64,000 nt of DNA from Shigella phage sb4, in sequence record PQ666542. One strand, given 5' to 3'. Under the pieces are notes generated by a model. It saw nothing but the letters and a program-made list of their open reading frames with translations. It ran no database searches and was not told where the DNA came from. Shown here one piece after another: positions 61,187-61,459 of the stretch (position 1 is the first letter of the stretch; each line of letters opens with the position of its first letter). A program made the position numbers and the translations under genes.

Positions 61187-61459
61187 TTATTTGTTTGTAT
61201 ACATCTCTAGATATCGATATACACTCTCAAAACCCTCATTGAATTCGTCGATGAGGGTTTTCTTATCTTCTTGAGTTAATTCAGAAACAATTTTACGGAA
61301 TGTATTCTGATTCAACTTTCTACCTTCATGCGTTACTCCAATCTCATTCAGAAATGCAATAAAAATAGCACGATTCTCAACAATATCTTCTCGGGAAAAT
61401 TTAATTAAAATAGACGCAACAGTAATAATTTCACGAACTGTATAAATATTCTTATTAAT
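61187..61459 (-). pseudogene. asiA: Anti-sigma70 AsiA; expected start position reads ATT instead of ATG
   Basis: 90 sense codons, no in-frame ATG/GTG/TTG before an upstream stop; hand-derived. Confidence 0.6.

Follow-up and report, generated by a model that had tools for sequence, protein, structure and literature searches.

A probable point lesion replaces the ATG start codon of asiA with ATT in the sequence of Shigella phage sb4

The asiA gene of Shigella phage sb4 (record PQ666542) reads ATT where its start codon should stand. Comparison with related sequences makes it very likely that a point lesion in this one sequence copy produced the ATT and that ATG is the start of the real gene. The stretch analyzed, 64,000 nucleotides and hereafter called the window, would have acquired the ATT through a single coding-strand G>T change (C>A on the plus strand, position 61457), and the substitution appears to belong to a selection-blind layer of lesions that extends over the whole 64-kb window. 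We favor a lesion because the window carries about 1,000 private substitutions, many of which break essential genes. The codon thus reflects, in all likelihood, an error, template damage, or corruption rather than an evolved translational feature.

A complete asiA frame with ATT at the start position

The features that define the asiA frame and its upstream signals are as follows.

61187..61459, minus strand: asiA coding frame, with 90 sense codons followed by TAA (61189..61187), from the sequence and its translation
61457..61459, minus strand: ATT (read 61459..61457) in place of the ATG start codon; C>A at 61457 of the plus strand, equal to G>T on the coding strand
61463..61465, minus strand: in-frame TAG, two codons before the asiA start position, present in relatives too
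61313..61315, minus strand: TTG at codon 49, the first canonical in-frame asiA start (61187..61315 in the open reading frame list)
61468..61473, minus strand: GAGTGG resembling a Shine-Dalgarno element, 8 nt before the asiA start position, overlapping the asiA.1 stop TGA (61474..61472)
61491..61519, minus strand: putative T4-early-promoter-like site upstream of asiA, GTTTACA-17 nt-TACTAT with TG, from a consensus scan; kept in relatives

The initial annotation described a frame that is complete to its expected stop, begins with ATT, and has an in-frame stop close upstream that leaves no usable ATG, GTG, or TTG. Each of these observations was borne out, and the coordinates given were exact. The codon between the upstream TAG and the ATT is TTA (61462..61460), and no ATG, GTG, or TTG occurs in that interval in the asiA frame of the minus strand. 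The open reading frame list, which was built on ATG, GTG, and TTG starts, accordingly contains asiA solely as a 42-amino-acid remnant from the TTG at 61315. A product initiated at this codon 49 would comprise 42 amino acids and would include none of the sigma-70 contact residues, which lie within positions 10 to 42.

When the sb4 copy is assessed as an expressible gene, by a canonical start and a ribosome-binding site, the binding site is intact and the start codon is ATT. The missing canonical start concerns the function of this copy and not its homology. The alignment columns over AATTGAGTGGTATAGTTA are invariant in all four aligned sequences, and the Shine-Dalgarno element and its spacer are the same as those in the relatives. 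We thus rejected a compensatory strengthening of the ribosome-binding site; since this region is unchanged, the weaker AUU codon would be uncompensated. The site at 61491..61519 is inferred from its sequence to function as a promoter. The change from ATG to ATT also produces the palindrome TTAATTAA at 61455-61462, a PacI site, which we take to be a coincidence.

The translated product is AsiA by sequence

Every sequence test identifies the gene as an ordinary Tequatrovirus asiA, which encodes a 90-residue protein of the anti-sigma-70 factor and MotA co-activator family. The translation matches Pfam PF09010 (PF09010.15) across profile positions 1 to 85 of 85, with a score of 136.4 bits (E = 3.7e-40) where 25 is the cutoff. 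Its residues 1 to 90 align with residues 1 to 90 of T4 AsiA (PDB 1JR5, 1TLH, and 6K4Y) with E = 2e-50 (1.9e-50 for 1JR5 and 1TLH). Only five positions differ, so that the two 90-residue proteins are identical at 85 of 90 residues. One difference, M1I, is the start codon itself, ATT in sb4 but ATG in T4, and the other four (D6Y, N32I, S53T, and G79S) are private missense changes. Nine diverse homologs have D or E at position 6, which D6Y alters. T4 AsiA contacts sigma-70 region 4 through residues that lie within positions 10 to 42 (PMC2988021), and all eight contact residues (E10, V14, I17, L18, K20, F21, F36, and I40) are present in the sb4 translation, as in T4.

The locus is equally typical. 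The gene order t, asiA, asiA.1, arn, motA is common to pSs-1, PP01, and pSe_SNUABM_01, in which the asiA position is annotated as an anti-sigma factor, and the same order was found in KNP5 and sb3. In every Tequatrovirus genome examined, and in the window by collinear projection, asiA is convergent with the holin gene t and has asiA.1, arn, and motA upstream. The sb4 gene therefore shares with T4 asiA its place between t and asiA.1/arn/motA, as well as the same Shine-Dalgarno element and early-promoter-like site.

The upstream neighbors are themselves damaged. The asiA.1 homolog directly precedes asiA:

61472..61624, minus strand: asiA.1 homolog, 50 codons in relatives, with two private GAA>TAA changes at codons 25 and 30

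In motA, a private nonsense codon falls at residue 123 (63548). We also observed that arn (61621-61899) is broken by a private nonsense change, TTA>TAA, at codon 24. On the other side of asiA, a hairpin with a 14-bp stem followed by a T-run occupies 61229-61261 of the plus strand, about 40 nt past the stop of holin t and inside the convergent asiA, and probably terminates the t transcript.

ATG at the start position among relatives

ATG stands at the asiA start in all three aligned relatives, and the ATT is private to the window in comparison with pSs-1, KNP5, and sb3. We extended the search with a 68-nt consensus query in two versions. The version with ATT matched 0 of 485 phage records at an identity of at least 99%, while the version with ATG matched 139 of the 485 at 100%. 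This identity-band comparison proves the absence of ATT only for those records that have the consensus background; for the remaining records, the absence rests on a uniform downward shift of the bands by one mismatch. A different query, which included 61100-61224, had one record match at 99% or above. This record is absent from the 40 matches listed and so probably covers little of that query; the 125-nt stretch 61100-61224, in which the window has no private substitution, would suffice for such a match.

Exact-pattern scans gave the same picture. In IMG/VR, the ATG version returned eight matches and the ATT 18-mer returned one, which we dismissed as a chance match to unrelated AT-rich intergenic DNA that has no AsiA frame. 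A scan of metagenome contigs found 0 ATT copies and 8 ATG copies, and an exact-pattern scan of genome contigs found 0 copies of the ATT version. A conserved AUU, as expected of an infC-type initiator, was thus not seen in the 485 records, IMG/VR, metagenomes, or genomes, and we rejected a natural polymorphism at the asiA start, as none of these collections holds a genuine ATT. As far as these sequences indicate, ATG is effectively universal at this position among relatives.

Private substitutions across the window

The window is part of a Tequatrovirus genome and lines up from end to end with positions 100977-164999 of the Shigella phage pSs-1 record; this collinear alignment has 2,024 mismatches and 19 gaps, an identity of 96.7%. 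Projection of the pSs-1 genes onto the window indicates that about 35 of 89 genes are broken by internal stops, frameshifts, or the loss of a start or stop. We compared the window, pSs-1, KNP5, and sb3 position by position at 62,942 comparable sites and counted the substitutions private to each, with codon positions given in the order first/second/third.

Window: 985 private substitutions; nonsense 43, missense 392, synonymous 355; codon positions 202/172/418; G:C>T:A 206
pSs-1: 334 private substitutions; nonsense 0, missense 49, synonymous 205; codon positions 32/20/203; G:C>T:A 18
KNP5: 602 private substitutions; nonsense 2, missense 163, synonymous 320; codon positions 110/59/323; G:C>T:A 59
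sb3: 1,221 private substitutions; nonsense 8, missense 308, synonymous 613; codon positions 186/118/632; G:C>T:A 98

Splitting the codon-position profile into a natural and a uniform component yields a selection-blind layer of about 0.7 to 0.9% per site. The 43 private nonsense codons (29 TAA, 8 TGA, and 6 TAG) fall in 23 window genes, including gp24, gp26, gp27, gp28, gp48, DNA ligase gp30, gp37, nrdA, td, gp59, and motA. Nonsense changes at codon positions 1 and 2 number 41, against 31 expected when the same spectrum is placed at random, a sign that purifying selection has not acted on them. In addition to the motA codon given above, the mapped sites include the following.

8276: nonsense, gp24
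16042: nonsense, gp26
17419 and 18145: nonsense, gp27
21263: nonsense, gp48
27853 and 27943: nonsense, gp30
57388 and 58849: nonsense, gp37
15285: private 1-nt indel, gp25
36122: private 1-nt indel, pseT
14334, 31238, 31720, and 31987: further private 1-nt indels

The indels in gp25 (baseplate wedge) and pseT (polynucleotide kinase) are deletions that shift the reading frame. Because the lesion layer breaks so many essential genes, the sequence as written cannot be a viable phage genome, and we infer that the lesions are not carried by a replicating phage. Public protein data agree: a search of about 15 billion public proteins found none of the eight window proteins tried that carry private missense changes, gp32 and the major capsid protein gp23 among them, but found both unmutated controls, gp31 and rIII, each in at least 1,000 contigs.

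Lesion patches and start-codon changes

The private G:C>T:A changes of the window are concentrated in patches of about 100 nt. The window has eight patches of this single class; pSs-1, KNP5, and sb3 have none. Within these pure patches, 22 to 37% of the G/C bases are changed, chiefly at the first and second codon positions. A further patch is of the G:C>A:T class, and the patch that includes the asiA start is slightly less pure.

3994-4104: G:C>T:A patch, eight G>T on a single strand
8722-8804: G:C>T:A patch
18075-18164: G:C>T:A patch
26023-26131: G:C>T:A patch
38067-38169: G:C>T:A patch, 10 changes
43373-43468: G:C>T:A patch, seven changes
48449-48550: G:C>T:A patch
55681-55778: G:C>T:A patch
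33446-33539: G:C>A:T patch (C>T class)
61444-61552: asiA patch, 109 nt with nine window-private substitutions, of which six are G:C>T:A

The six G:C>T:A sites of the asiA patch are 61444 (AsiA D6Y), 61457 (the start loss), 61484, 61510, and 61537 together with 61552 (the two GAA>TAA changes in asiA.1), and 22% of its G/C bases are changed. Clustering alone was rejected as a discriminator because the private changes of the relatives cluster too; patch purity and coding effect are the measures that discriminate. Mosaic divergence was rejected on this basis for the asiA patch and eight others, which are of the single class G:C>T:A, affect codon positions 1 and 2, and are unseen in the three relatives. 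Other dense private patches in the window, at 19455-19700 (gp29), 20755-21508 (gp48), and 10439-10531 (hoc), change mostly third codon positions; these are set apart from the lesion patches and reflect the usual divergence by mosaicism or recombination.

The asiA start is one of two start codons changed among the 80 coding sequences scored, and in both a G>T change has turned ATG into ATT. The second lies in a small conserved open reading frame adjoining pseT:

35860-36057, minus strand: second ATG>ATT start loss, lesion at 36055, with ATG in three of three relatives

From 80 genes and a background of about 0.6 to 1.0% lesions per site, 1.4 to 2.4 such changes are expected by chance. The asiA start change hence does not stand apart from the background: it shares its class and its patch with the adjoining nonsense lesions, and start losses occur at a chance-level count.

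Several origins are candidates for the lesions. They could be G/T miscalls from single low-quality reads of about 100 nt at low coverage, guanine oxidation in a template before its amplification, or the outcome of deliberate or in silico corruption. G/T confusion is a classic error of four-color Illumina sequencing, and G>T is the expected signature of oxidized guanine.

Alternative readings of the ATT codon

The initial annotation left two explanations side by side, a point lesion and the use of AUU as an inefficient initiator. The lesion gained support from the private G>T change, its six-change G:C>T:A patch, and the 43 nonsense codons, while the initiator lost ground to the universal ATG and the unchanged ribosome-binding site. 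An evolved AUU start could mean a low AsiA dosage or IF3-dependent control, as in E. coli infC, and we regard it as very improbable. The AUU of infC is a conserved and functional part of IF3 autoregulation. Nivinskas et al. reportedly described an internal AUU start in T4 gene 26 in 1992, which would be a precedent in a phage; a search for this start in the collection of papers covered returned no match. The two confirmed AUU-initiated genes of E. coli are infC and pcnB, and AUU initiates at about 1 to 2% of the level of AUG (bioRxiv 10.1101/063800). The sb4 gene resembles both in having AUU at the initiator position and a Shine-Dalgarno-like element before it. Its frame is complete, the element lies at a spacing of 8 nt, and the sigma-70 contacts are intact; since AUU is a proven weak initiator, a leaky functional asiA may be read from this sequence. 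By analogy and at face value, AUU behind the unchanged GAGTGG would support about 1 to 2% of normal AsiA synthesis. A lower dosage is even conceivable as an advantage because AsiA expression is toxic to E. coli (PMC2988021). In contrast to the conserved, functional infC codon, though, the ATT of sb4 asiA is a single copy that is absent from several hundred relatives and sits amid destructive lesions: no relative among the 485 records has it, the IMG/VR, metagenome, and genome searches returned no genuine match against abundant ATG, the change lies within a same-class patch that destroys the adjoining asiA.1, a second ATG>ATT of that class occurs elsewhere with start losses at the chance expectation, and no change in the ribosome-binding site compensates for it. 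AsiA acts on sigma-70 at a 1:1 stoichiometry and is needed for middle-mode transcription (PMC2988021), which makes a 50- to 100-fold drop unlikely to be adaptive and implies that initiation at either AUU or the TTG of codon 49 would entail a severe loss of AsiA function. There is accordingly very little chance that ATT is the true base of a replicating natural lineage that makes AsiA from AUU at about 1 to 2%, be it a low-AsiA variant or an IF3-gated gene like infC. Were it so, no regulatory gene with an AUU start would have been described in a T-even phage before asiA, and a key phage regulator would join infC and pcnB as a third, rare case of AUU initiation in the E. coli system.

A less remote alternative, though still an unlikely one, holds that the ATT is a real base in a DNA molecule: a start mutation, spontaneous or damage-induced, in a defective or heavily mutagenized genome, or a change fixed by amplification from a single damaged template, with AsiA made at about 1 to 2% or not at all. 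The G>T class is chemically plausible, clustering within about 100 nt could mean local template damage, AUU allows 1 to 2% initiation (bioRxiv 10.1101/063800), and deposited phage genomes such as sb3, with eight nonsense codons and an ATT at the homolog of window position 30539, carry lesions of this kind. Against it, 43 nonsense codons plus the frameshifted gp25 and pseT leave a genome unable to replicate as a phage, so that even a real base would represent no functioning biological state, and the asiA ATT is indistinguishable from the other lesions. This account differs from the favored point lesion only in where the error arose. The many in-frame stops might instead suggest an altered genetic code or programmed read-through, under which the stops and the odd start would be only apparent lesions, and some phage groups are known to reassign stop codons. 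We consider the probability of this negligible. All three stops occur internally (29 TAA, 8 TGA, and 6 TAG) and the same three still end genes, the stops replace varied sense codons (mostly GAA, AAA, and GGA), the closest relatives, at 95 to 97% identity, use the standard code without these stops, and private missense changes and frameshifts accompany them. The mixture of stop types, together with the sense codons in near-identical relatives, refutes reassignment and read-through.

Comparison with sb3 and meaning for the window

A point lesion in the sb4 copy thus remains the preferred explanation of the ATT, and sb3 (PQ666541.1) offers the closest parallel. Like the window, it has private nonsense codons (eight), split genes (alt, nrdB, and gp34), and a private ATG>ATT of its own at the homolog of window position 30539. 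Nonsense codons in the window, however, outnumber those of sb3 about fivefold, and the window has the signature of G:C>T:A patches of about 100 nt, which sb3 lacks. Deposited Tequatrovirus genomes therefore carry similar lesions at a lower rate, as sb3 shows. We also noted that the annotation of the sb3 record leaves out genes in the stretch around the homolog of window position 30539.

The asiA gene itself offers nothing new, being a well-known gene with an artifact-level lesion, and it matters little as biology because it is standard and well studied. The wider consequence is for the window: findings that depend on a single base, including odd starts, premature stops, apparent pseudogenes, and frameshifts, are suspect until checked against relatives.

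One open reading frame of the window is conspicuously free of lesions. Flanked by the genes for tail sheath and tail tube, it occupies positions 809-1426 of the plus strand, has 205 codons and a GTG start, and matches pSs-1 at all 618 nt (100% identity). It is missing from KNP5 at this location and looks like a mobile or optional gene.
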